Below are positions 3,388 to 43,997 of a DNA stretch of 64,000 nt, one piece after another. The notes beneath the pieces were generated by a model, which saw only the letters and a list, made by a program, of their open reading frames with translations, was not told the DNA's origin and made no database searches. This DNA is from Pseudomonadota bacterium (GTDB lineage: Bacteria > Pseudomonadota > Alphaproteobacteria > Rickettsiales > RGZB01). The stretch covers positions 24 through 64,023 of the forward strand of contig RGZB01000004.1 of NCBI GenBank assembly GCA_010031735.1, read 5' to 3'. The stretch's first letter is position 1. Each line of letters begins with the position of its first letter. A program made the position numbers and the translations under genes.

Positions 3388-5931
3388 ATGGCCATCAATC
3401 TTGGCAGTTTCGTAACGGTAAATGGTAAGTCGATCTCGACAGGGTCGCAATCCGGCCTTGATACGCAAGCGCTGATCAAGGAGCTTGTTTCCGTACGTGA
3501 AGACCAGATCAAGACCATCACCGATAAACAGACCAAAGTGAAAAGCCAGGTGACGGAATTCGGCACCTACAGCAACCTGCTGAACAAACTCAAGACATCG
3601 CTCAACCTGCTGCGTAACCCACCGGGTTTCGGCCAAGCCAGTAACAACGTATTCCAATACCGCACGACGCAGCTCTCGACGAGCAACGGCACGACGGCCA
3701 GCAACTATCTGAACGTGACCGCAACACCGGGGGCAAAACTCGCGAAATATACCGTTTCGATCGACAACGTGGCAGAAGCACGCCAGCTTCGCAGCAACAC
3801 GTCCTACAGCAGCGTCAGCTCTGACCTGACGACCGGCGGTGGTATCACGCCCGGTACATTTACCATTACCTCAAGCCTGTACGGCATCCATGACGAAGTG
3901 CTCTCGAGCGGCGATTATTCCGCCCAAGGTGCGGCGAGCGGTATCGTCAGCAGCCTCGGCAACTTCAACGTGGTGAGTAATGGCGATACGGGCCTGCAAG
4001 GTACCATCGCTGGGTTCAATGCGACCGTGAACGGCAATAACGTGGATTTAAGCGTCGTGGTGAACGGCAAGACCTACACCGCCTCCGTGGCCGCGAACAA
4101 CGGTGTGGGTAACGATTCTATCACCGCAGGGGGCATCACTTTCACCAATACGGCGACGGGCACCTCCTTCCGGGTGACGACCGGTAGCGATTATGTGATC
4201 GCGGGCAACCAAACCAATGCGGATGCTTTTGCCGCGGCACTGACCTCCGGCGTATCCGGCATCTCGGTGTACCAAAGCCGCGAAGTGGGTAACTTCTCGA
4301 AAGCGAATGCCGCGGGTTCGACGGTTTCCAAACTCGAGAGCAAGAATATCAGTTTCGTGAGCAACGGTTTCGATAACGCCACGCTCCGCCAGGGCTCCAT
4401 CGGTAAATTCACCGCGACGGCGGTTTCAGCCGCGGGTGCGAACGACGGTAAACTCGAAGTGACCATCAACGGGGAGACGTTCCGTGCCACGGGTCTTGGC
4501 AACGACGGTTCAGATACGGAAACCAGCAACATCACGCTCTCCAGCCTGAGCACGGGTAAAAAACTGAATATCAATCTGGCCGATGCCGGGATCACCCTCG
4601 ATTTCTCGACGCCGACCAAAGCCGCGACGATCTCGAGCGATCTCAATAAAACCTTCGGTACGTTCTCGGAAGATGTGACGATCAGCGCGGGTTCGACGCT
4701 TGCCAGTGTCGTGAGCGCCATCAACGCAAAATCCACGACCACCGGTGTTTCCGCAAACACCCTGCAGGTGGGTCCGAACGACTACCGCCTTTCACTCACG
4801 GCCGACAATACCGGCTTTGAAGGCGGCTTCGACCTGGTGAATGCAGCGACGGTGTTCGGCGTCAGCCCGTTTTCGACCGTGAAGACCGAGGAAGATTCCC
4901 AAATCACACTTGACGGCGTTGCCATCCATCGGGGCAGCAACACGATCAGCGATGCGCTCGACAACGTGACCTTCTCGCTCCTGCAAGAGACCGGGAACGG
5001 CGTGACGATCGCGAGTGAGATCAAAGAAGACAAATCCGCGGTGCAGAGCACGATCCTCGATTTCGCCGCCGCCTATAACGAGATCAAGATATTTCTTGCA
5101 AAACAATCCGAACGTGATGCGGATGGCAAATTCCTGGATACGGCGGTGCTCGGTGGTAATACGCTGGTGCGCACGACCGCGCAAAGTTTCGATACCGAAC
5201 TGAACAAACTGGTGGGTGGCCTGGGCACGAATGCCATTAACCGACTCTCCGAAATCGGTGCAGCCTTCTCTGATCTCGAGGCGGACGAGGCCAGCAAAAC
5301 ACCGGCGACGCATAACGTACTCCAATTCGACCAAACGAAACTGGCAAGCGTCGTCGATTCGAGTTTCGATAAGGTGCGTGCACTCTTCGAATTTACGCTC
5401 ACCACCTCGCAGAGCGACAAACTGGGCATTTCCAAAACCTCGAACTCACTCGGTGCGAACAATTTCACGCTCGATATCGATAAGAACCGCGCGGCCGGCG
5501 ACCAGGTGCGCGTGAAATATAATGACGGTACGAACGATGTGGTCGTGAATGCGACGCTCACGGGCACCGCTGGCAACTATAAGATCATCGGTAACTCTGG
5601 CACGGTGCTGGAAGGTATGGAATTCGTGTATGTCGGTACGGGTGTGGATTCGATCGACGTGAACGCAACGCAAGGTATCGGCGACCGCCTGTACAACCTG
5701 ACCGATGGTTTGGTCGCGGATAAGGGCCTGATCAGCACAGAGGTGACGAATCTCGATGATTCTGCGAACAACCTGCAAGATAACATCAACCGCGAGAACA
5801 CGCGTCTCGATGATTACCGTAACCGCCTGTATCTGCAATTCTCGAACTTTGAAGCGCAACTGTCGAAGATCAACTCGACACTGGCATTCTTAGACGCGCA
5901 AACGGCAGCACAGAATAACTACGGTAGATAA
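3388..5931 (+). CDS. fliD: flagellar filament cap protein FliD (hook-associated protein 2), enlarged to 847 aa
   Basis: FliD N-terminal heptads (SGLDTQALIKELVSVREDQIKTITDKQTKVKSQVTEFGTYSNLLNKL) and C-terminal coiled coil (NLQDNINRENTRLDDYRNRLYLQFSNFEAQLSKINSTLAFL). Confidence 0.9.
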   Translation: MAINLGSFVTVNGKSISTGSQSGLDTQALIKELVSVREDQIKTITDKQTKVKSQVTEFGTYSNLLNKLKTSLNLLRNPPGFGQASNNVFQYRTTQLSTSNGTTASNYLNVTATPGAKLAKYTVSIDNVAEARQLRSNTSYSSVSSDLTTGGGITPGTFTITSSLYGIHDEVLSSGDYSAQGAASGIVSSLGNFNVVSNGDTGLQGTIAGFNATVNGNNVDLSVVVNGKTYTASVAANNGVGNDSITAGGITFTNTATGTSFRVTTGSDYVIAGNQTNADAFAAALTSGVSGISVYQSREVGNFSKANAAGSTVSKLESKNISFVSNGFDNATLRQGSIGKFTATAVSAAGANDGKLEVTINGETFRATGLGNDGSDTETSNITLSSLSTGKKLNINLADAGITLDFSTPTKAATISSDLNKTFGTFSEDVTISAGSTLASVVSAINAKSTTTGVSANTLQVGPNDYRLSLTADNTGFEGGFDLVNAATVFGVSPFSTVKTEEDSQITLDGVAIHRGSNTISDALDNVTFSLLQETGNGVTIASEIKEDKSAVQSTILDFAAAYNEIKIFLAKQSERDADGKFLDTAVLGGNTLVRTTAQSFDTELNKLVGGLGTNAINRLSEIGAAFSDLEADEASKTPATHNVLQFDQTKLASVVDSSFDKVRALFEFTLTTSQSDKLGISKTSNSLGANNFTLDIDKNRAAGDQVRVKYNDGTNDVVVNATLTGTAGNYKIIGNSGTVLEGMEFVYVGTGVDSIDVNATQGIGDRLYNLTDGLVADKGLISTEVTNLDDSANNLQDNINRENTRLDDYRNRLYLQFSNFEAQLSKINSTLAFLDAQTAAQNNYGR

Positions 5932-5987: not shown

Positions 5988-6482
5988 ATGCCTAATAAAA
6001 GTGCGCAGCATGTAGCTTACGCCACGGCAGCCCAGAATGCGAGCAAGACCCGTCAGGTCGTCATGCTCTATGATGGGGTGATCAGTATGGTTCAACGGGC
6101 AGTCGAAGCCATCAAAGAAGGTCAGCTCGAAGAACGCTATATGCTGATCGATAAGGCCCGTAAGATCGTGTGTGGTCTCCAGACGGCACTCGATTTCGAT
6201 AATGCCCCGGATATCGCCAAACTCATGTACGATTATTATGAATCCATCGATATGCGCATGATCCATGTGCAGAGCACGAACCGTGCCGATGTACTGGCGC
6301 AGGTGGAAAAAGAACTGAAGATCATGCGGGATGCCTGGAAAACCATCGACGAAGCCGCCGAGAAAGAAGGCAAGAAACAAGATACGAAAGAGATGTATGC
6401 CACGGCCTATGAGGCGGTAACGGTGGCAACCGCCAGTTCTGCGGCAGAATCGAGCGCCGACAGCGTCTCTATCTCGGTCTAA
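5988..6482 (+). CDS. fliS: flagellar export chaperone FliS
   Basis: Motifs TRQVVMLYDGVISMVQRAVEAIKEG...KARKIVCGLQTALDF, position after fliD, and a GGAGGAGG ribosome-binding site. Confidence 0.9.
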   Translation: MPNKSAQHVAYATAAQNASKTRQVVMLYDGVISMVQRAVEAIKEGQLEERYMLIDKARKIVCGLQTALDFDNAPDIAKLMYDYYESIDMRMIHVQSTNRADVLAQVEKELKIMRDAWKTIDEAAEKEGKKQDTKEMYATAYEAVTVATASSAAESSADSVSISV

Positions 6483-6503
6483 ACCCATATAACAATAGAA
6501 ACG

Positions 6504-6533
6504 AGGGGGCGGGCGTATATTACGCCGCCCTCT
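6504..6533 (+). terminator. rho-independent-type hairpin after fliS
   Basis: Arms agggggc(g)gggcg and cgcccgccct pair with one bulge around a tatatta loop, followed by ttgtgcttt. Confidence 0.55.
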
Positions 6534-6539
6534 TGTGCT

Positions 6540-6555
6540 TTAAGGGATTGTTAAC
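6540..6555. promoter_or_regulatory. perfect CtrA-type box, TTAA-N7-TTAAC
   Basis: TTAA(6540-6543) gggattg TTAAC(6551-6555), about 43 nt upstream of the ATG at 6598. Confidence 0.4.
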
Positions 6556-6597
6556 ATTATTCTGTCATGCTGGAGATGGGATAATAAGAGGTTTTTT

Positions 6598-7717
6598 ATG
6601 GTAGCAATAGATCCAGGGTTTTTAGAGAAGATATTTGCTGATCCGGCGGATGATAATCACCGGCTGGCGGTCTGCGACTGGTTAACCGAAAATGGCGACC
6701 CGGCACGCGCAGAACTCATCCAACTACAATGTGACGGTGACCAATTACCGCCAGTATGATGGGCACGAACCCAACAGGAATTATCATGCTGCGCAGGGAA
6801 GGCCAGAGGAGAGAGTGCACGCAGCGGAGTTAATCGCGCAGCTCTCCCCCCACACCGTGCCGGCTGCTTTGCCGTCGATAGTAGCGGGCAAAGAAGCGAT
6901 CTATCTGGAAGTAACCGAGAGTAATATTCTGACACACGAAGTGGTGCTGGGTGATTTAACTTCCGAATATAGGCCAACCGCATTCATCGGGACGGCGGAA
7001 CATCCTGCTGTTGTAGAAGCGGTGGTCGTGGCGCCGAACTTAGATATCGATCTGCGTTTCGGTCGTTGCCGGAGCTGCATGCTTCAGACCGGCGCCAGAA
7101 ATACAGGTAGGCTATATATAGATAATAGCAGGATCGATTCCGTGATTATCGGCCCGGAACATAGTGGGTTCATCGAAGGTGGCTTTGCTTCGGATTTTGG
7201 CCGTGTGTTGATAGGCCATGGAAAAAATAATGGTCTAGTTCTAAATGGGACCGCAGGCGCGGTGGTCACCGGGCCGGGCTATCAGGACGTTCTTACGTTA
7301 TGCAGCTATACCCGCACGGCACTCCATTCGCATGACGCGACCGGTAGTTTGACACTTGGCCTCATGGAGTTTTCCCAACCGGACGCAGAGTTCGCCTTCT
7401 ACAACCACGAGACAGGCGAGACCCATCCCATCACTCTCCGGGGTACGTATTATGGCAAGGAGGGCGGAGAGCAGGTGTTGAAGATGGTATATAACGATAC
7501 TCTTGCCTTAGGTTCGTTACTTATCATGCAGGATGCACATGGAAGTGATGAGCGGAGTATTGCTGCAAGCGTACCGGAAAATATAATCAACAGAACGCGC
7601 GAGAAGGGCAGGAAAGATCGCACCGCGGCCGCGGTAACGTCTTTGGGCGAGGCTACGGGTGATCTCGGCGATCTCTCGAAGGAACGCGTGGAAAAAGGCC
7701 CGCCGCCACGCCCTTAG
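6598..7717 (+). CDS. TIGR02996-type N-terminal domain / repeat protein, paralogue 1, split over two frames (6598-6759 and 6692-7717)
   Basis: The frame starting at 6598 has an AAGAGG ribosome-binding site and encodes MVAIDPGFLEKIFADPADDNHRLAVCDWLTENGDPARAELIQLQ..., stopping at 6757-6759. The 341-codon body is open only in the +1 frame, and its ATG at 6692 has no ribosome-binding site. Confidence 0.6.
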
Positions 7718-7801
7718 CCTTAAAATATAGCCCCTTTTGTGCTTTAACGGATTTTAACCTTACCCCGTTATGTTGGAGATTAGGATAATAATAGGTTTTT
7801 T

Positions 7802-9044
7802 ATGGTAGCTATAGAACGGGGATTTCTAGAAGAAATATTTGCTGATCCGGCGGATGATAATCACCGGCTGGCGGTCTGCGACTGGTTAACCGAAAATGGC
7901 GACCCGGCACGCGCAGAACTCATCCAACTACAAGGAAGAAATACGCGACCGGGTCGCGTTCCTGGTGGGGACAAACCGTGATCGCTGGCTGACAGAAGCC
8001 GGGATACCGCCGCACCTTTGGTGCCATGTGTTCTTCGAACGCGGTATGCCGAGCCATTACATCACGGTAGAGAATTTTCGGATCCATGATCATAGCAATC
8101 CAGAAAGGGATGTGCGTGCACAAAACGCCCAGATCGCACCGGAGCGCCTGCGTGCGGCTGAATTGATCGCTGCCATGGAAGGATGTGTGGTGCCGGCAAG
8201 ACTTGAGCCACTGGGCTCGAAGCAACCCATTTATCTTGAAGTTCAACCGCCTTCTGCCGAAGAACGCGTGGTGCTTATTGGGAGCCTTAATGGAATCCTT
8301 GATCTTAAGAAATATACGTTCGAGGCTGTGGCGATATCACCTGAGCTTGGGAAAAGCCTACATCTTTTTCCTTTTTCGGCACGCGTGGTGAATATCGGAG
8401 GGAAAATAAACCATAGAGTACATATCGGTGCGTGTCAGGTTGATACCATGACCATCGGCAATGACAGTAGAGGGGATTTGACGATAAGTGGAGCTAGGAT
8501 TGGATCTTTGATCATCGGAGACGATAGAAAGCAGGATGTATTATTAAGATTCGGTCCAAGCATTATAGGCTGTCTTGTGATAGGGCGTGGCTTTCAAGGA
8601 GATATTGAAGCGGAAGGACGTTTTGACACATTGTTTCAAGGTCTTGATGCGGCTGGCAGTATCATCTATCAGGGGTACAATCCTGAGTACAACAAGGTAA
8701 ATTTTTACGACACCAACACGGGGGACGTCTACCCTGTGGGTGATGCACAGGATAAGTCAGCGTTTCGCGACCGGGTGCTGGCACTGGCAGAGCAAGGAGA
8801 TCTTCCCTCGCTGAAAGAATTGAGGGTTTATCGATTTGACCCAGATGTCGAAGGGCATTCTTTATTGTGTGAAGTAACGCCGGAGGAGCTTCGTTATGTA
8901 CGCGAACGTGGCGTAGAAACACGCGCTGCTGAAGCGCTGGCCGATGACCCGCTCGACGAAGCCGTGACCGAAGCCGGCAGGAAGGGGGGCCCGAAAGCAG
9001 TGGCGGATGAAATCGAGGATACAAGACTTCCCGATCGCGAATAA
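7802..9044 (+). CDS. TIGR02996-type N-terminal domain / repeat protein, paralogue 2, split over two frames (7802-7981 and 7896-9044)
   Basis: Same layout as paralogue 1. The N-domain frame ends at TGA 7979-7981. The body in the +1 frame continues ...KEEIRDRVAFLVGTNRDRWLTEAGIPPHLWCHVFFERGMPSHYITV..., followed by xIGxxxxxLxI-type repeats. Confidence 0.6.
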
Positions 9045-9145
9045 CGGATTCTGGCGAACCGATAACCTACCTACAACACACCTCTTGAGAAATCACATCG
9101 TTTAGGCTATATCTGCCGTCCCCATTACTATAAAAACAACGGTTT

Positions 9146-10384
9146 ATGGCACTTATTGTTCAAAAATTCGGCGGTACGTCGGTCGCGAACACGGACAACA
9201 TCAAAAACGTTGCCCGTCGCGTGAAATCCGAGGTGGAGAAGGGCAACCAGGTTGTCGTGGTGGTCTCCGCCATGTCGGGCACGACCGACCAGCTCATCAA
9301 ATGGGTGAATGCCGTATCGAGCCTGAACACCAAAGAAGAAGAAGCAGAGCACGATGTGGTCGTCTCCTCCGGTGAACAGGTGACGAGCGGCCTTTTGGCA
9401 CTCGCACTGCGCGCGATCGACGTGCCGGCCATCTCCATGCAGGCGTGGCAGCTGCCGTTCTACAGTGACGATATGTTCCGTAAAGCCCGCATCGAGGATA
9501 TCGAGACGGGGGCGCTCACCGATGCGCTGAATAAGGGACTCGTGGTAGTGGTGCCGGGCTTCCAGGGCATTACGCGGAGTAAACGCGTGACGACCTTAGG
9601 CCGTGGCGGTTCTGATACCTCCGGTGTGGCACTCGCTGCAGCCTTGAAAGCCGAACGTTGTGATATCTATACTGACGTGGAGGGGGTATACACCTCCGAT
9701 CCACGCGTGGTGACGAAGGCGCGCAAACTCCGCAAGATCGCGTACGAAGAAATGATGGAGATGGCATCCTTAGGCGCGAAAGTGCTGCAGCTGCGCTCTG
9801 TCGAAATGGCAATGAAACACAAGGTTCGGGTGCAGGTGCTCTCGAGCTTCTCCGATAAACCGGGAACCTTACTCGTAGATGAAGAGGAAGTTATGGAACG
9901 ACGACTCATTACTGGCGTAACCTACAGCCGCGGCGAAGCGCAAGTGACCGTGACGGGTATTCCGGATAAGCCGGGTATCGCTGCCGAGATCTTCGGCCCG
10001 CTCGCGGATGCGGAGATCAACGTCGATATGATCGTGCAGAACATCTCGGAAGCCAGCGGCAACGAGAAATTCACCGACATGACGTTCACCGTCGGTAAGA
10101 CCGATCTCGATAAAGCGCTCTCTTCGCTGAAAGCGCTCAAGGACAAATTGAAATACCGTGAACTCATCACGAACGACCAGGTGGCGAAAGTCTCCGTCGT
10201 GGGTGTCGGGATGCGTTCACACGCTGGTTTGGCGCAAAAGATGTTCAAGACGCTGGCGGAAAAAGGCATCAACATCCATGTGATCTCCACGTCGGAAATC
10301 AAGATCTCGGTGTTGATTTCGGAAGAGTATCTGGAACTCGCACTCCGTGCGCTGCATACGGCATACGGCCTCGACGAGAAATAG
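9146..10384 (+). CDS. lysC: aspartate kinase
   Basis: MALIVQKFGGTSVANTDNIKNVARRV...VVVVSAMSGTTDQLI, with C-terminal ACT-type regions. Confidence 0.95.
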   Translation: MALIVQKFGGTSVANTDNIKNVARRVKSEVEKGNQVVVVVSAMSGTTDQLIKWVNAVSSLNTKEEEAEHDVVVSSGEQVTSGLLALALRAIDVPAISMQAWQLPFYSDDMFRKARIEDIETGALTDALNKGLVVVVPGFQGITRSKRVTTLGRGGSDTSGVALAAALKAERCDIYTDVEGVYTSDPRVVTKARKLRKIAYEEMMEMASLGAKVLQLRSVEMAMKHKVRVQVLSSFSDKPGTLLVDEEEVMERRLITGVTYSRGEAQVTVTGIPDKPGIAAEIFGPLADAEINVDMIVQNISEASGNEKFTDMTFTVGKTDLDKALSSLKALKDKLKYRELITNDQVAKVSVVGVGMRSHAGLAQKMFKTLAEKGINIHVISTSEIKISVLISEEYLELALRALHTAYGLDEK

Positions 10385-10385
10385 A

Positions 10386-11435
10386 TTACCGATTGCTGCG
10401 CGACGGCGATTCCGGTGTGTTGAAGAGCGATAAGCCGCTCTCGCGGATACGTTTCTCCGCATTCTTTAAGATACCCGATACCGAAGCACGACCCGTGAGC
10501 CCGAAATGGGTGGCGGTTTCTTCCTGTGTTTTCTCGATGCCATCGTTGATACCATACAGATGGTCGAGCACTTCGCGCTGACGCTGGGTCAGCACCTCGC
10601 GTGCACGGGCGTAGGTTTCTAAGAAATGCTCGCGGTCGGTGAACTGGGATACCACATCCGGTCCGAGGCTTTCATCTGCGATACGGTTCACCCACGCTTG
10701 GTTTGTGCGAAGGCGCGTATCCTGCACGGCGAGCAAATTAGCCTCAGTGCGCACCGGACTCGACGTGGTGTTGATGATGAGCTGCAGTGTGGCCGTATCG
10801 TAATTGTAGCCCTGGTTGAAGGCGGCCATCAACAACGATGGCACGACACCCGCACGGCCGTCGGTTAAGGTGTGCGTGTCTGCATCGCGCCCGTAGGAGG
10901 GCACATCGCGATCCAGCAAGAGGTCGATCACTTCGCGGCGCGTGTGATTATCGGCGAATGCATGCCTGCCGGTGTTCGCAATCGTCGTGTTATAGGCATG
11001 CTCTACGACCGGACGCGCCGTTTCTTTGAGCAGTGTTTTAAAGAGTTTGAACGTTTCGGTGCTCGGCGGTGCCTCTTTATCGCCTATGCGGTACATGAGG
11101 TTCTCGAGTGCCAGGGTTGTCGGGTTCTTCATGTTGCCGCCAGCGCCGCTGACCTGTGCCACGGTCTCATGGGCGATATAGAGTTCGCGGGCCGCTAAAA
11201 CGGCATATCCTACCATCTCCTTCTTGCTCAGCCGGCATTCCGGATGGGTCTCGCGGAATTCGGCGAAAGGATCGGGGCGCGTGCCGAAAACCATGGTGTA
11301 ATAGATATCCCAGGCAGCGGGAGGCAGGTCGGAGTCATTCACCCGTTGCAGCAATGCGTTCGCGATCGGCACCGGCAACGTATCGAGCGTATACCGATGG
11401 AAATCATTGTTGTGCTTGGTTCGCGTAATAGACAT
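10386..11435 (-). CDS. uncharacterised protein with a sigma-70 region-4-like C-terminal HTH (family member A)
   Basis: C-terminus LTQRQREVLDHLYGINDGIEKTQEETATHFGLTGRASVSGILKNAEKRIR. The N-terminal domain is not recognisable and is paralogous to the next gene (motif AARELY...SGAGGNMKNP). Confidence 0.6.
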   Translation of the reverse strand: MSITRTKHNNDFHRYTLDTLPVPIANALLQRVNDSDLPPAAWDIYYTMVFGTRPDPFAEFRETHPECRLSKKEMVGYAVLAARELYIAHETVAQVSGAGGNMKNPTTLALENLMYRIGDKEAPPSTETFKLFKTLLKETARPVVEHAYNTTIANTGRHAFADNHTRREVIDLLLDRDVPSYGRDADTHTLTDGRAGVVPSLLMAAFNQGYNYDTATLQLIINTTSSPVRTEANLLAVQDTRLRTNQAWVNRIADESLGPDVVSQFTDREHFLETYARAREVLTQRQREVLDHLYGINDGIEKTQEETATHFGLTGRASVSGILKNAEKRIRESGLSLFNTPESPSRSNR

Positions 11436-11457: not shown

Positions 11458-12420
11458 TCATCGGTTCTTTTCACCGCGATCGCGGTCGAGTTCTTGATTC
11501 ATATAATGGTGCAATTGGCTAAGGCCCTGATCAATCCATTTACTCACGGTCTCACGACTCTTGCCTATCCGCTCGGCTATCTCCGATTTGGTCTCGGTAG
11601 GGTTCTCATCAAGGCCGTAATAGCGCACAATGGCGGCGCGGTATTCTTCTGGTAACAAGCCCAACAGATGGTCACCCTTTTCGTGCAATATGGAGACGAG
11701 ATAGTCGTGATAAACTTCGGAGCGGGGTTCTGCGATGGATGCGTTCTGTTTTCTGGTGAGCGAGGTGGTGGCGCTTTCGGTGCCTATAGCCAGATGGCCG
11801 CGCTCGCCCAAGATAAGGCGTAGACCCGGGATAAGGTAATCCGGGTCGTAGTTCTTATGATGCCACTCCTTATCGATCACATGGCGCATGAGGAAGGGAA
11901 AGGCGCCAACTGAAGCATCATCCGGACGCTCGAGCAGAGATTCCACAATCGTACGTTTGGAGCCGCCCCTTAAGTCCTCCGCGAGTGCATCTTTCTCCGC
12001 GAATTGGTCATACAGTTCGGAGATGATACCGCGTGCCGTGGCGCGTAAAATGTCGCTATAGCGTGCGACACTGTCGCTGGTCAGTTCTTTCTCGCGTAAT
12101 TTCTCGATCAAGACCTGGATGGTCCGGCTGTAAGGGGAAGACATATGGCCGCCTGTGCCGCCTGCTAATACTACATTCTTACCGGCGAACAAGCGTTCAG
12201 CTGCAAGACAGGCCCGCTCGGTCAAGGCATCGGCATCCATATCACCCAGAAAATCCGGATATTCTTTGGCGATACGGTTTAAACTTTCTACGGGATTGAG
12301 ATTGAAATCAAATACCACGGCGCGGAGTAAATCGCGATCTGCCTGTGTTACGACACCGCCATCGGGGCGGTTATTCCATGCGCGCCAAAAACCGGCTGGT
12401 TGGATGCTATGGTCGTTCAT
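11458..12420 (-). CDS. uncharacterised protein with a sigma-70 region-4-like C-terminal HTH (family member B)
   Basis: C-terminus LPEEYRAAIVRYYGLDENPTETKSEIAERIGKSRETVSKWIDQGLSQL. Shares AAERLF...AGGTGGHMSSP with member A. Confidence 0.6.
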   Translation of the reverse strand: MNDHSIQPAGFWRAWNNRPDGGVVTQADRDLLRAVVFDFNLNPVESLNRIAKEYPDFLGDMDADALTERACLAAERLFAGKNVVLAGGTGGHMSSPYSRTIQVLIEKLREKELTSDSVARYSDILRATARGIISELYDQFAEKDALAEDLRGGSKRTIVESLLERPDDASVGAFPFLMRHVIDKEWHHKNYDPDYLIPGLRLILGERGHLAIGTESATTSLTRKQNASIAEPRSEVYHDYLVSILHEKGDHLLGLLPEEYRAAIVRYYGLDENPTETKSEIAERIGKSRETVSKWIDQGLSQLHHYMNQELDRDRGEKNR

Positions 12421-41593: not shown

Positions 41594-42544
41594 ATGCAGC
41601 CTTCGTTTGACCAAGGATTGCAGCATCTCAAGAACAGTCTTCTAAACGGCCTTGATCAATTGGTTAATGTGTTGTTTCCAGCGCGTACGATACTGAAATC
41701 AGTGCATGAGTATCGCATCGGAACCCACGGAAGTATTTCGATACGATGTGATGATGGAGCATATTTTAACCATGAGACAGGCGAGGGCGGTGATATATTA
41801 ACATTGATTCAGCACGCCCTAAAAACCGACTTTAAAGGTGCGTTAGCATTTGCGAAGGGGTTTGTTGGTAGTGCGCCTAAGCCTGTGCCTAACCTTCAGA
41901 AGCGACTGAATGAGCGCGCGGAACGGCAACGTGATAAAGCTATTTTGATGCTAAAGCGTTCGGTTTCGATCAAGGATACACTGGCACAGCGATACATAGA
42001 GGAGCATCGCAGAATTGAGGCGGAGTATGTTCCTGCATCACTGCACTTTCTGCCACACGCTTATAACCACACCGCCGATGGGTTTTTCCCTGCGATGATT
42101 GCACCTATCAACAGTGTTGATGCTGAGGTGATTGCAGCGCATGTCACATTTCTTGATCCCAAGACAGGCAACAAACTTAAAGGAGATGGCATCAAATCGC
42201 GCCTTATATTTGGCTCTTGCAGAGGTGGCGCAATAAGGCTTTCAGGGGCAACAGACAGGCTTGCATTGTGCGAAGGTATCGAAGATGGCTTAACCATATT
42301 GAGTACTACCGACTGGCCAGTTTGGGTAACGGGAGGCACGTCGAATCTACGCTCAGTAGAACTGCCTGATTCGATAAGAGAAGTACTTATTGGTGCAGAT
42401 AATGATCAGGCAGGGCTTGAGGCCACACAACATCTTGCTAAACGTTTAACTAAAGAAGGCCGCATGGTGCGCATCGCTACACCACCATCAGGATACAAAG
42501 ACTTTAATGCAATGCTTTGCGGGGAGAAACACCATGTCGCATGA
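41594..42544 (+). CDS. toprim-domain primase-like protein
   Basis: LALCEGIEDGLTI...VLIGADNDQAGLEATQHLAKRL, giving toprim E and DxD. The N-terminal region resembles P4 alpha-type primases. Confidence 0.75.
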   Translation: MQPSFDQGLQHLKNSLLNGLDQLVNVLFPARTILKSVHEYRIGTHGSISIRCDDGAYFNHETGEGGDILTLIQHALKTDFKGALAFAKGFVGSAPKPVPNLQKRLNERAERQRDKAILMLKRSVSIKDTLAQRYIEEHRRIEAEYVPASLHFLPHAYNHTADGFFPAMIAPINSVDAEVIAAHVTFLDPKTGNKLKGDGIKSRLIFGSCRGGAIRLSGATDRLALCEGIEDGLTILSTTDWPVWVTGGTSNLRSVELPDSIREVLIGADNDQAGLEATQHLAKRLTKEGRMVRIATPPSGYKDFNAMLCGEKHHVA

Positions 42545-43997
42545 AGATATAAAGGCGGTGATTGATACCGCGCCAGTGGTGAGTGTGAAGGAAGATATAA
42601 CCACAACGATCACTCGCCTCTCTATGCTACCTCCACTGGAATATGAAAGGGTGCGTGATTCGGAGGCAGAGCGTTTGGGTGTTCGGGTGGCGGCACTTGA
42701 TAAGGAGGTGTTAGCCAATCGCAAGTCCTTACAGCAGGATGATGATGCGATGATGTTCTCAGTGGTTCCGGTATGGCCGGAGCCTGTCGATCTTGAGATA
42801 TTGCTCGATGAAGTGGCTACAACCGTACAGCGCTTTATTATCTGCGAAAAAGAAACTGCGATTGCAACGGCGCTATGGTGCGCGTTCACATGGGTGATTG
42901 ATGATGTACAGGTAGCGCCACTGGCGGTGATTACTGCTCCTGAGAAGCGATGCGGCAAAAGCCAACTGCTTAACCTTATAGGCAAACTAGTACCAAAACC
43001 TCTGGTGGCTTCCAATATCTCACCCTCAGCAACCTTTCGAGTAATAGAGGCATATAGGCCAACCCTACTCATCGATGAGGCAGATACGTTCTTCAAAGAT
43101 AATGAAGAACTGCGTGGTGTGATTAATAGCGGACATACACGGCAATCGGCGTATGTGATTCGTTCGGTAGGCGATGATCATGAACCGAAGCAGTTTTCCA
43201 CATGGGGTGCTAAGGCCATATCCGGTATTGGCACGCTCGCTGACACCATCATGGATAGGGCGATTATACTAACGCTCAGAAGGAAGCTGCCCCATGAAGC
43301 CGTAAAGAGACTGCGTCATGCGGAGGCGGGTACGTTTGAGGTTTTAGCATCCAAGCTCGCACGATTCGCACAGGATTATGGTGATACCGTAGCGCGTTCC
43401 CGTCCACCATTGCCCGAAGCGCTGAATGACCGTGCCCAGGATAATTGGGAGCCTTTGCTTGCGATTGCTGATTGTGCGGGTGGTAAATGGCCTGAGCTTG
43501 CCAGAAACACTGCGCTTACATTATCCAGTGCCGAGCATGAAAGCCCATCTCTCTCCGCTGAGCTACTGAGTGATATTAAAAAGGTGTTTGAATATAAGCT
43601 AACGGATCGCATCTCCACCACCGAGCTTATAACCGCACTCTGCAAAGACGAAGAAAAGCCATGGGCAACCTATAACCGTGGCAAGCAGCTTTCATCCCGT
43701 CAGCTGAGCAAACAACTCTCCGAATATGGCATTGCCAGCAAATCAATGCGAATAGAAGGAGTGGTCTCCAGAGGCTTTGAATTACAACAGTTTAGCGATG
43801 CGTTTGCGCGCTACTTAACCTCTACCCCCCTCGAATCCGCTACATTGTTACAATCCAGCTTTTCCGAGCCTTACACTGTAGCAGATAATGTGCAGTGTAA
43901 CATTTACAAAAACGAATCCTCTACTCTAGAGGCCGCAGAAATCCTCAATTGTAACAATGTAGCAGATAAATCAGGGGTAGTAGAGGTAAGGATATGA
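42534..43997 (+). CDS. DUF3631-type P-loop ATPase (replication/helicase-like)
   Basis: Walker A APEKRCGKS, Walker B LLIDEAD, then ELRGVINSGH. GGGGAGA ribosome-binding site. Confidence 0.7.
   Translation: MSHEDIKAVIDTAPVVSVKEDITTTITRLSMLPPLEYERVRDSEAERLGVRVAALDKEVLANRKSLQQDDDAMMFSVVPVWPEPVDLEILLDEVATTVQRFIICEKETAIATALWCAFTWVIDDVQVAPLAVITAPEKRCGKSQLLNLIGKLVPKPLVASNISPSATFRVIEAYRPTLLIDEADTFFKDNEELRGVINSGHTRQSAYVIRSVGDDHEPKQFSTWGAKAISGIGTLADTIMDRAIILTLRRKLPHEAVKRLRHAEAGTFEVLASKLARFAQDYGDTVARSRPPLPEALNDRAQDNWEPLLAIADCAGGKWPELARNTALTLSSAEHESPSLSAELLSDIKKVFEYKLTDRISTTELITALCKDEEKPWATYNRGKQLSSRQLSKQLSEYGIASKSMRIEGVVSRGFELQQFSDAFARYLTSTPLESATLLQSSFSEPYTVADNVQCNIYKNESSTLEAAEILNCNNVADKSGVVEVRI

Follow-up and report, generated by a model that had tools for sequence, protein, structure and literature searches.

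Two tandem TIGR02996-domain genes of an uncultured Rickettsiales bacterium share a frame break that is probably a disruption linked to gene conversion

Two neighbouring genes in the genome of an uncultured Rickettsiales bacterium encode their N-terminal domain in one reading frame and their long body in the +1 frame. This raises the question whether the two parts of each gene are joined by recoding, are expressed separately, or were torn apart by mutation or by an error in the sequence. In our view the frame disruption is probably real, derived and not programmed, and was spread or created by gene conversion of the 5' ends. The locus was analysed within a stretch of 64,000 nucleotides, called the window in the following.

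Two reading frames in two tandem genes

All ORF coordinates that had been given in a first, sequence-only reading of the locus hold against the sequence and the ORF list. The genes and junctions are as follows:

5988-6482, + strand: fliS (164 aa), upstream flank; an ORF, with a FliS homologue immediately 5' of aspartokinase in the Rickettsiales MAG L005
6598-6759, + strand: short ORF 1 (53 aa), TIGR02996 N-domain only (NCBIfam TIGR02996, 56.0 bits, E 2.5e-15)
6692-7717, + strand: body ORF 1 (341 codons) in the +1 frame; homology to the family body from about 6731, linker missing
6727-6736, + strand: frame break of copy 1 (caa tgtg acg), where QLQC of frame 0 meets VTVTNYR of the +1 frame
7802-7981, + strand: short ORF 2 (59 aa), TIGR02996 N-domain only (NCBIfam TIGR02996, 52.7 bits, E 2.7e-14)
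7896-9044, + strand: body ORF 2 (382 codons) in the +1 frame; linker with W..FFERGMP..ITV motif and beta-rich body
7931-7940, + strand: frame break of copy 2 (caa g gaa gaa)
9146-10384, + strand: aspartokinase (ask), downstream flank; Pfam AA_kinase and ACT domains on the identical protein

The assignment of the N-terminal domain to TIGR02996, made from the letters alone, proved right, as both short ORFs score above the curated NCBIfam cut-off of 29.05 bits. Their frame ends at stops in 6757-6759 (53 codons from ATG 6598) and 7979-7981 (59 codons from ATG 7802), and direct reading finds a TAA of the +1 frame at 6683-6685 and 7887-7889. No stop interrupts the 328 codons counted in body 1, compared with 21 and 15 in the remaining two frames, and none the 370 codons of body 2 (19 and 27 in the remaining frames). 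Neither body carries secondary decay in the form of extra stops or frameshifts. The absence of stops means that the break occurred recently, or that translation of the bodies from an internal start, or selection on them, continues. The deletion of a single base anywhere in 6727-6736 or 7931-7940 results in single ORFs of 372 and 413 aa.

An intact orthologue in the same slot

An exhaustive HMMER search of 1.84 billion representative proteins delivered one true homologue (P0003, E 8e-49). It is encoded by one in-frame ORF of 393 aa with a TIGR02996 domain of 36.9 bits, located on the Logan contigs SRR19238511_214697 and SRR19238510_698809, and the gene is identical in the two independent run assemblies (L002 and L003). 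Its slot lies between the 3' end of fliS, which in L002 is likewise found upstream of the intact gene, and aspartokinase, matching the locus in the window. Architecture and position thus agree, whereas the orthologous locus holds one in-frame gene and the window two frame-split genes. Relative to L002 both copies are disrupted. The sequence-only reading had suggested aligning orthologues to see whether the frame change is conserved; it is absent from the only orthologue, P0003.

With tblastn, residues 1-44 of P0003 align to 7802-7933 in frame 0 and residues 53-370 to 7923-8945 in the +1 frame (joint E 1e-50). Because the alignment spans both frames, the frame split in copy 2 is not a chance pattern. 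Past the junction copy 2 is collinear with the orthologue, with a spacing of 90 nt in both, and P0003 and distant members confirm the view that its +1 frame reads on in the manner usual for the family. Between the codon for Q44 and NRDRW, copy 2 has 40 nt compared with 78 nt in the orthologue, a net difference of -38 (2 mod 3). In copy 1, the distance from the Q44 codon to TVTNYR is just 4 nt, whereas the intact orthologue has 168 nt here (a net difference of -164, again 2 mod 3). Copy 1 lacks the entire linker of about 55 aa, including the W..FF.RG.P motif that is present in copy 2 and P0003. The string caatgtg at its break is common to L002.

P0003 is 35-38% identical to copy 2 and 28-30% to copy 1, whereas 159 of 170 residues are identical between the neighbouring aspartokinases (93.5% at the protein level). 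Hence, either the gene is evolving much more rapidly than those beside it, or the paralogues that survived are not the same in the two lineages.

TIGR02996 (NCBIfam 'rpt_mate_G_obs') is known mainly from Gemmata and other planctomycetes. Both window copies share its N-terminal domain of roughly 45 aa, well above the cut-off, and copy 2 also shares the linker with the aromatic-x-RG motif, but in the other frame. The window genes differ from these proteins by their Rickettsiales host, by a beta-rich C-terminal body without relatives in Pfam, NCBIfam or the PDB, and by the frame change between domain and body. Scans of JGI metagenomes and IMG/VR recovered only distant relatives of the N-domain, L004/L020 and L021, which are single ORFs with N-domain, linker and an aromatic-x-RGF..VTL motif. 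In these and in P0003 the TIGR02996 domain is contiguous with the body in one ORF; in the window copies it is not. Word-indexed searches that covered 5.8 billion proteins gave no match other than the query itself, whether started with the repaired copy 2, with P0003 or with the body of copy 1. A scan of the GTDB genomes with the family alignment gave no relative, and the nearest GTDB genomes, found by a scan with aspartokinase, lack the gene. Sequence searches of Pfam, NCBIfam and the PDB with the body gave no match either. The AlphaFold2 model of P0003 has a pLDDT of 58 with the N-terminal module unresolved, and Foldseek detected no significant match to this low-confidence model in the PDB, the best being weak beta-helix folds with E of at least 0.5. 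A literature search found no papers on TIGR02996.

Shared 5' modules and the origin of the break

The two genes are preceded by homologous modules, which contain the following features:

6527-6729, + strand: 5' module of copy 1 (upstream region, ribosome-binding site, N-domain to Q44), homologous to 7731-7933
6631-6729, + strand: 99-nt tract, identical to 7835-7933, with its 3' edge exactly at the frame break; read as a recent gene-conversion tract
7731-7933, + strand: 5' module of copy 2, homologous to 6527-6729

The modules align over 204 columns with 22 differences, all of which fall within the first 105 columns (79% identical; 21% differences). At the overall rate of the module, a run of 99 nt without a difference has a chance of 1e-5. 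At the protein level the bodies share about 30% identity, and in the 90 nt directly past the tract identity drops to 25.6%, which is random. The tract is thus far more similar than the rest and ends at an abrupt boundary, which argues for recent gene conversion between paralogues that are otherwise only about 30% identical. The older part of the N-domain has seven codon differences between the copies, four synonymous and three non-synonymous, and the frame of the N-domain was accordingly under selection.

The following order and mechanism of events, as well as the present expression status, we infer from these observations. Two old tandem paralogues of a lineage-restricted gene, composed of TIGR02996 N-domain, linker and beta-rich body, would each have started as one continuous ORF. 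Gene conversion would have homogenised the 5' module, i.e. upstream region and N-domain, between the copies, and the latest event would have affected the final 99 nt. Where homology between the copies ends, at the tract's 3' edge, each copy would have suffered an out-of-frame loss of 38 nt or 164 nt net. In copy 1 this loss would comprise the whole linker and may have been mediated by the TGTG microhomology. Equivalently, a single base could have been inserted among the final bases of the tract and then passed on to both genes. Translation from ATG 6598 or 7802 would yield only N-domain peptides of 53 and 59 aa. The bodies, severed from the N-domain, would be untranslated recent pseudogenes or would yield a low-level product from an internal start, e.g. 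ATG 6692/7896. Gene conversion with pseudogenisation was among the explanations considered in the sequence-only reading, and it gains support from the 99-nt tract, from the intact orthologue in the same slot and from the losses of 38 and 164 nt.

Some observations speak against this explanation. A break of the same phase at the same place in both copies needs a one-in-three coincidence of two junction events, unless a single insertion hit the tract within about 6 nt of its end. The undecayed bodies fit an ongoing function as well as a very recent break, and the in-frame state is represented by one orthologue at 35-38% identity. A comparable situation was reportedly described by Ogata and colleagues in 2001, who are said to have found split genes and young pseudogenes in Rickettsiales genomes such as that of Rickettsia conorii. 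There, too, an otherwise intact ORF is cut by a frameshift and the fragments are still open; at our locus, in contrast, the lesion is common to two tandem paralogues whose 5' ends were homogenised by conversion.

Alternative readings of the double frame change

Next in order, and unlikely in our judgement, is that the break is real and mutational but that both parts remain functional: the peptides of 53 and 59 aa would be made from the strong 5' start and the bodies independently of them, with the internal ATG 6692/7896 or a codon further on, e.g. GTG 6815, as their start. Bodies made from an internal start would be MATRHAQNSSNY-led. Such an arrangement is consistent with the fully open bodies; however, these are equally expected just after a very recent break. 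The internal ATG lies inside the perfectly conserved tract. It had been described as lacking a ribosome-binding site, and the Shine-Dalgarno pairing is indeed weak (-2.7 kcal/mol), but this has no discriminating value: aspartokinase, with -2.9, is hardly better, and several real genes of the window are equally weak. GTG 6815 is preceded by a strong SD-like GAGGAG (-9.3). However, as this hexamer encodes conserved EER residues, it need not be a ribosome-binding site. Moreover, N-domain, linker and RGF motif form one contiguous module in every intact relative, and the break in copy 2 cuts through this module. Direct reading also shows that in neither copy are the two ORFs coupled by an overlap of stop and start codon.

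A sequencing or assembly error is less probable still. It would require one surplus base in or next to the shared tract, reproduced in both copies, e.g. through a long-read error tied to the sequence context or through polishing that ran across the repeat; the true genes would then encode 372 and 413 aa. Removal of a single base near the junction does restore both ORFs, and the upstream sequence context is identical in the two copies. An independent assembly of the locus was not found either: in exact-protein look-ups none of the four ORFs of the locus, the gene-caller versions P0001 and P0002, and FliS is on record, and an ENA contig that is identical to the window breaks off 25 nt after copy 2. 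ERZ28578498 (SAMN10254633) includes a contig whose aspartokinase is 100% identical. On the other hand, the junction (caactacaa followed by g or t) is not a homopolymer. The rest of the 64 kb consists of densely packed long intact ORFs among which no further split gene was seen, so that few indel errors are to be expected in this assembly. The bases right after the tract differ between the copies, and reads over each junction are therefore unique. An error would also leave the missing 12 and about 55 residues unexplained, though these could represent natural in-frame variation.

We consider it very improbable that, in the two genes, N-domain and body are fused through programmed +1 ribosomal frameshifting or other recoding. 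Hardly to be expected, too, is its specific form, an efficient +1 recoding at a non-canonical site (..CAA-CUA-CAA|N..) that is kept identical by selection and yields full-length proteins from both genes; if true, a Rickettsiales lineage would possess a bacterial +1 frameshift signal of a new type. The idea draws on the intact bodies, on the frame relation and position, which are alike in both copies, and on a perfect 7-bp hairpin (7943-7959) that begins 9 nt past the junction of copy 2. No comparable hairpin was found downstream of the junction in copy 1, and the folds downstream of the two junctions do not stand out from shuffled sequences (z -1.19 and -0.80; 20/200 and 41/200 shuffles as stable). 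Direct reading of 6718-6745 and 7922-7950 revealed no P-site codon at or near the junction that re-pairs in the +1 frame (CUA-C, CAA-G/U, GGA-A, UGU-G), as had been noticed from the sequence alone for classical slippery motifs. The site has no in-frame stop (those of frame 0 come 9 and 15 codons later) and no rare codon common to both copies, and no SD-like stimulator (no GGAGG) is located upstream. Downstream of the junction the copies have no sequence in common, and Rfam gave no match. The orthologue, in two assemblies, is in frame and has extra sequence at the junction point.

In prfB-type +1 frameshifting, the shift takes place at CUU UGA C with an upstream SD-like element. The needed direction is the same at our locus, but its site is without slippery codon, stop or hungry codon, SD-like stimulator and conservation in the orthologue. 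Recoding, which the sequence-only reading had also put forward, alongside a uORF-like split architecture and a replicated consensus error, was consequently not borne out, given the in-frame orthologue, the lack of a slippery or hungry-codon site, the non-significant folds and the absence of an Rfam match.

Several other candidates were rejected. Transcriptional slippage would call for a homopolymer of some 7 or more A or T, located at the frame change or upstream of it; here the longest run between ATG and junction measures 5 (ttttt, 6619-6623, copy 1 only) and the longest common to both copies 4 (aaaa, 6689-6692 and 7893-7896). By direct reading, translational bypassing fails on downstream CAA landing codons that lie in the wrong frame, and termination-reinitiation on ATG or GTG codons overlapping the frame-0 stops, which open the +2 frame and not the frame of the body. 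Strain alleles misassembled in tandem do not apply, since what comes after the stop of body 1 is not the aspartokinase leader but a separate, diverged version of the upstream module.

With a conversion-linked disruption as the preferred explanation, the two genes are to be annotated as disrupted and not as recoded, and the locus is mainly a clean negative for a double frameshift that resembles recoding. Beyond this, genes with a TIGR02996 domain reach further than the planctomycetes, namely to freshwater Rickettsiales and to predicted phage contigs. The gene in the slot between fliS and ask evolves extremely fast, being about 35% identical between organisms in which the neighbouring aspartokinase is 93% identical. 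This would fit an accessory gene that is related to host interaction or to the surface, with selection on it either diversifying or relaxed.

Two tandem genes in two frames

A sequence-only reading of this DNA had described both tandem genes as laid out in two frames, and ORF coordinates and stops were read accordingly; as an observation, the double frame split is real. It involves four ORFs:

6598-6759, short ORF of copy 1 (53 codons; ATG 6598, preceded by AAGAGG; stop 6757-6759)
6692-7717, body ORF of copy 1 (341 aa), +1 frame
7802-7981, short ORF of copy 2 (59 codons; ATG 7802; stop 7979-7981)
7896-9044, body ORF of copy 2 (382 aa), +1 frame

The short ORFs match TIGR02996, as had been recognized, with 56.0 bits (E 2.5e-15) and 52.7 bits (E 2.7e-14) against the NCBIfam cut-off of 29.05 bits; Pfam had no model for either peptide. 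The TAA described upstream of each body ATG was located by direct reading at 6683-6685 and 7887-7889, where it closes the +1 frame. In a tblastn search of the window, P0003, an intact 393-aa homologue, matched 7802-7933 in frame 0, the frame of the N-domain (residues 1-44), and 7923-8945 in frame +1 (residues 53-370). With one protein aligning across both frames of copy 2, the split is no accident of ORF listing. Removal of any one base within 6727-6736 creates a single 372-aa ORF in copy 1, and within 7931-7940 a single 413-aa ORF in copy 2.

Relatives and genomic setting

The gene family is tiny. Word-indexed searches of 5.8 billion proteins returned only own entries (the gene calls of the window, and P0003 for the P0003 query). 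When 1.84 billion representatives were searched exhaustively with a HMMER profile, both genes of the window came back and, as the one true homologue, P0003 (E 8e-49); the other matches were two unrelated repeat proteins. Logan contigs of two runs, L002 and L003 (SRR19238511_214697 and SRR19238510_698809), carry P0003 with identical sequence. At its locus the fliS 3′ end, one 393-aa gene and aspartokinase follow each other, so that it occupies the slot known from the window. On both contigs it is one continuous ORF, in which the TIGR02996 domain (36.9 bits; ..RAELIWLQC) is followed by the linker GFEDDHYANLTAEARAARIAELEACNRERWLREDGIPEDLRAHVFFARGVPSTYITLENFRI and the body; the frame change, for which a check in orthologues had been proposed, is not shared. 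Two distant members on the predicted phage contigs L004/L020 (214 aa) and L021 (266 aa) likewise keep N-domain, linker and an aromatic-x-RRGFV..VTL motif together in a single ORF. Since all these relatives are single-frame, the ancestral and normal state is one frame. The phage genes lie at 5971-6615 of L004, the same contig as L020 (IMGVR_UViG_3300005471_000019), and at 2905-3705 of L021 (IMGVR_UViG_3300021432_000008); by eye, the neighbours of the L004 gene resemble a methyltransferase and a phage protease.

P0003 is 35-38% identical to copy 2 and 28-30% to copy 1. The former range, for window 6598-9044 against L002 165-1346, stands beside an aspartokinase with 81.7% DNA identity and 159 of 170 identical residues (93.5%). 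Either the gene between fliS and aspartokinase evolves extremely fast, or each lineage kept different paralogues. The nearest GTDB genomes are uncultured Rickettsiales MAGs (aspartokinase 78% identical); in the closest, L005, fliS immediately precedes aspartokinase and no TIGR02996 gene separates the two, and thus the gene is a lineage-specific insertion. Its GC3 is below that of its neighbours, both in the window (0.43-0.57, adjacent housekeeping genes 0.70) and in L002 (0.50 and 0.58). A 49-nt stretch upstream of aspartokinase (~9073-9122) is 96% identical to L002, the coding sequence only 82%; a conserved promoter or leader may lie here, and Rfam gave no match for the stretch.

AlphaFold2 modelled P0003 with low overall confidence (mean pLDDT 58), and stacked beta strands are predicted for residues 190-370 (10-residue block means 66-92). 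Foldseek against PDB revealed no significant match with this model; the weak top matches (E >= 0.5) were beta-helix folds (CAP C-terminal domain, gamma-carbonic-anhydrase-like, pectinase, bactofilin). Sequence searches of PDB, Pfam and NCBIfam with the body returned nothing, and a search of the available literature library found no paper mentioning TIGR02996.

Elsewhere in the window, flagellin (435-2858, 807 aa) and FliD (3388-5931, 847 aa) are unusually long, and within the former a 70-nt stretch is directly repeated (1149-1218 and 1584-1653, 76% identity). Two adjacent minus-strand ORFs of ~320-350 aa each (10386-11435 and 11458-12420), one weakly resembling sigma-70 region 4 (E 8e-6, below cut-off) and the other without family, may be paralogous lineage-specific regulators. 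For a 316-aa ORF at 41594-42544, the match to TraI, the conjugative relaxase/helicase, is confined to the C-terminal part (positions 1555-1864 of the 1960 in the profile; E 9e-27, far below cut-off), and the ORF is possibly a conjugative-element remnant; no family was assigned to the ORF that follows and overlaps it (42507-43997).

Gene conversion and the junctions

The bodies of the two copies, ~30% identical, are old paralogues; 43 residues of copy 2, from KEEIRDR to RGMPSHY, are missing from copy 1. The 5′ modules (6527-6729 and 7731-7933) align over 204 columns, with all 22 differences in the first 105 and a perfect 99-nt run thereafter (6631-6729 = 7835-7933), whose probability is ~1e-5 at the overall difference rate of the module. 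Over the next 90 nt, identity is 25.6%, the random level. Such a pattern is that of gene conversion acting more than once between tandem paralogues, with the latest event confined to the last 99 nt. Where the conversion tract ends on its 3′ side, homology stops and the frame breaks as well. Seven codons in the older portion of the N-domain differ between the copies, four synonymously and three non-synonymously, and therefore frame 0 has been read as protein.

Spacing was counted from the codon of Q44 (caa), the last N-domain residue before the break, with L002 as intact reference.

Spacing between conserved landmarks at the junctions
Interval; L002; copy 2; copy 1
Q44 codon to NRxRW; 78 nt; 40 nt (net -38); landmark absent
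NRxRW to T(L/V)ENFR; 90 nt; 90 nt; landmark absent
Q44 codon to T(L/V)ENFR / TVTNYR; 168 nt; 130 nt; 4 nt (net -164)

The net losses of 38 and 164 nt leave the same remainder, 2 mod 3, and this places both bodies in the +1 frame. Copy 1 retains 'caatgtg' where L002 has 'caatgtgg' (QLQC), and its +1 frame opens with 'gtg acg gtg' (VTV). Precisely this junction and phase would result if a deletion had joined two TGTG microhomologies, one at codon position 1 and the other at codon position 3. Two histories fit the data alike, both mutational and neither programmed. In one, events at the junctions would have taken place where the converted tract ends, for instance through repair of a break with the other copy as template and sealing by end-joining; the common phase would then be a one-in-three coincidence. 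Alternatively, two in-frame deletion variants would both have been shifted once a single inserted base, located among the final few bases of the tract, was copied across.

Standing of the explanations

At this locus the frame of two tandem paralogues was probably disrupted secondarily and without any programme, in connection with gene conversion of their 5′ modules. Among the options of the sequence-only reading, pseudogenisation spread by gene conversion explains the locus best, the perfect tract ending at the break. The bodies contain no stop in 328 and 370 codons (15-27 in other frames); a very recent break, in keeping with the perfect 99-nt tract, would account for this, as would continued use of the bodies.

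A split but functional arrangement with independently translated bodies is unlikely. Both bodies are stop-free, and at the internal ATGs (6692, 7896), described earlier as lacking a ribosome-binding site, Shine-Dalgarno pairing is indeed weak (-2.7 kcal/mol), yet no weaker than in real genes of the window (aspartokinase -2.9, others -0.7 to -3.9). However, the break in copy 2 cuts a module contiguous in all intact relatives.

A sequencing or assembly error is quite improbable: the break site is not a homopolymer, the bases past the tract differ between the copies, so that each junction is covered by unique reads, and the ~60 other window genes are long and intact with no second split pair. The collections searched contained no independent assembly of the two-gene locus. 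Scaffold_21142 of ENA ERZ28578498, from an independent metagenome and 100% identical to the window (9069-10524), begins 25 nt after the copy 2 stop; that assembly may break at the tandem or variable locus.

Programmed recoding, a +1 shift fusing N-domain to body, can hardly be upheld, since it fails every defining feature testable here in codon, stimulator, structure, Rfam and orthologue tests. As already noted from the sequence, a classical slippery motif is missing: P-site re-pairing in +1 is impossible at or near the junction (CUA-C, CAA-G/U, GGA-A, UGU-G). The A site holds neither a stop nor a shared rare codon, the frame-0 stops following 9 and 15 codons further on, and no SD-like element lies upstream. 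Copy 2 does carry a perfect 7-bp hairpin (7943-7959) 9 nt past the junction, but local folds are no more stable than shuffles (z -1.19 and -0.80), no sequence past the junction is common to both copies, Rfam has no match in 6400-9300, and the only orthologue, P0003, is in frame. Transcriptional slippage is ruled out because the longest homopolymer between start codon and junction has 5 nt (ttttt 6619-6623, copy 1 only; 4 nt common to both copies). For bypassing, the downstream CAA landing codons are in the wrong frame, and termination-reinitiation does not lead into the body because the ATG and GTG overlapping the frame-0 stops lie, by direct reading, in the +2 frame.

The event is ordinary in kind, and the gene joins the TIGR02996 family as a new member restricted to its lineage.
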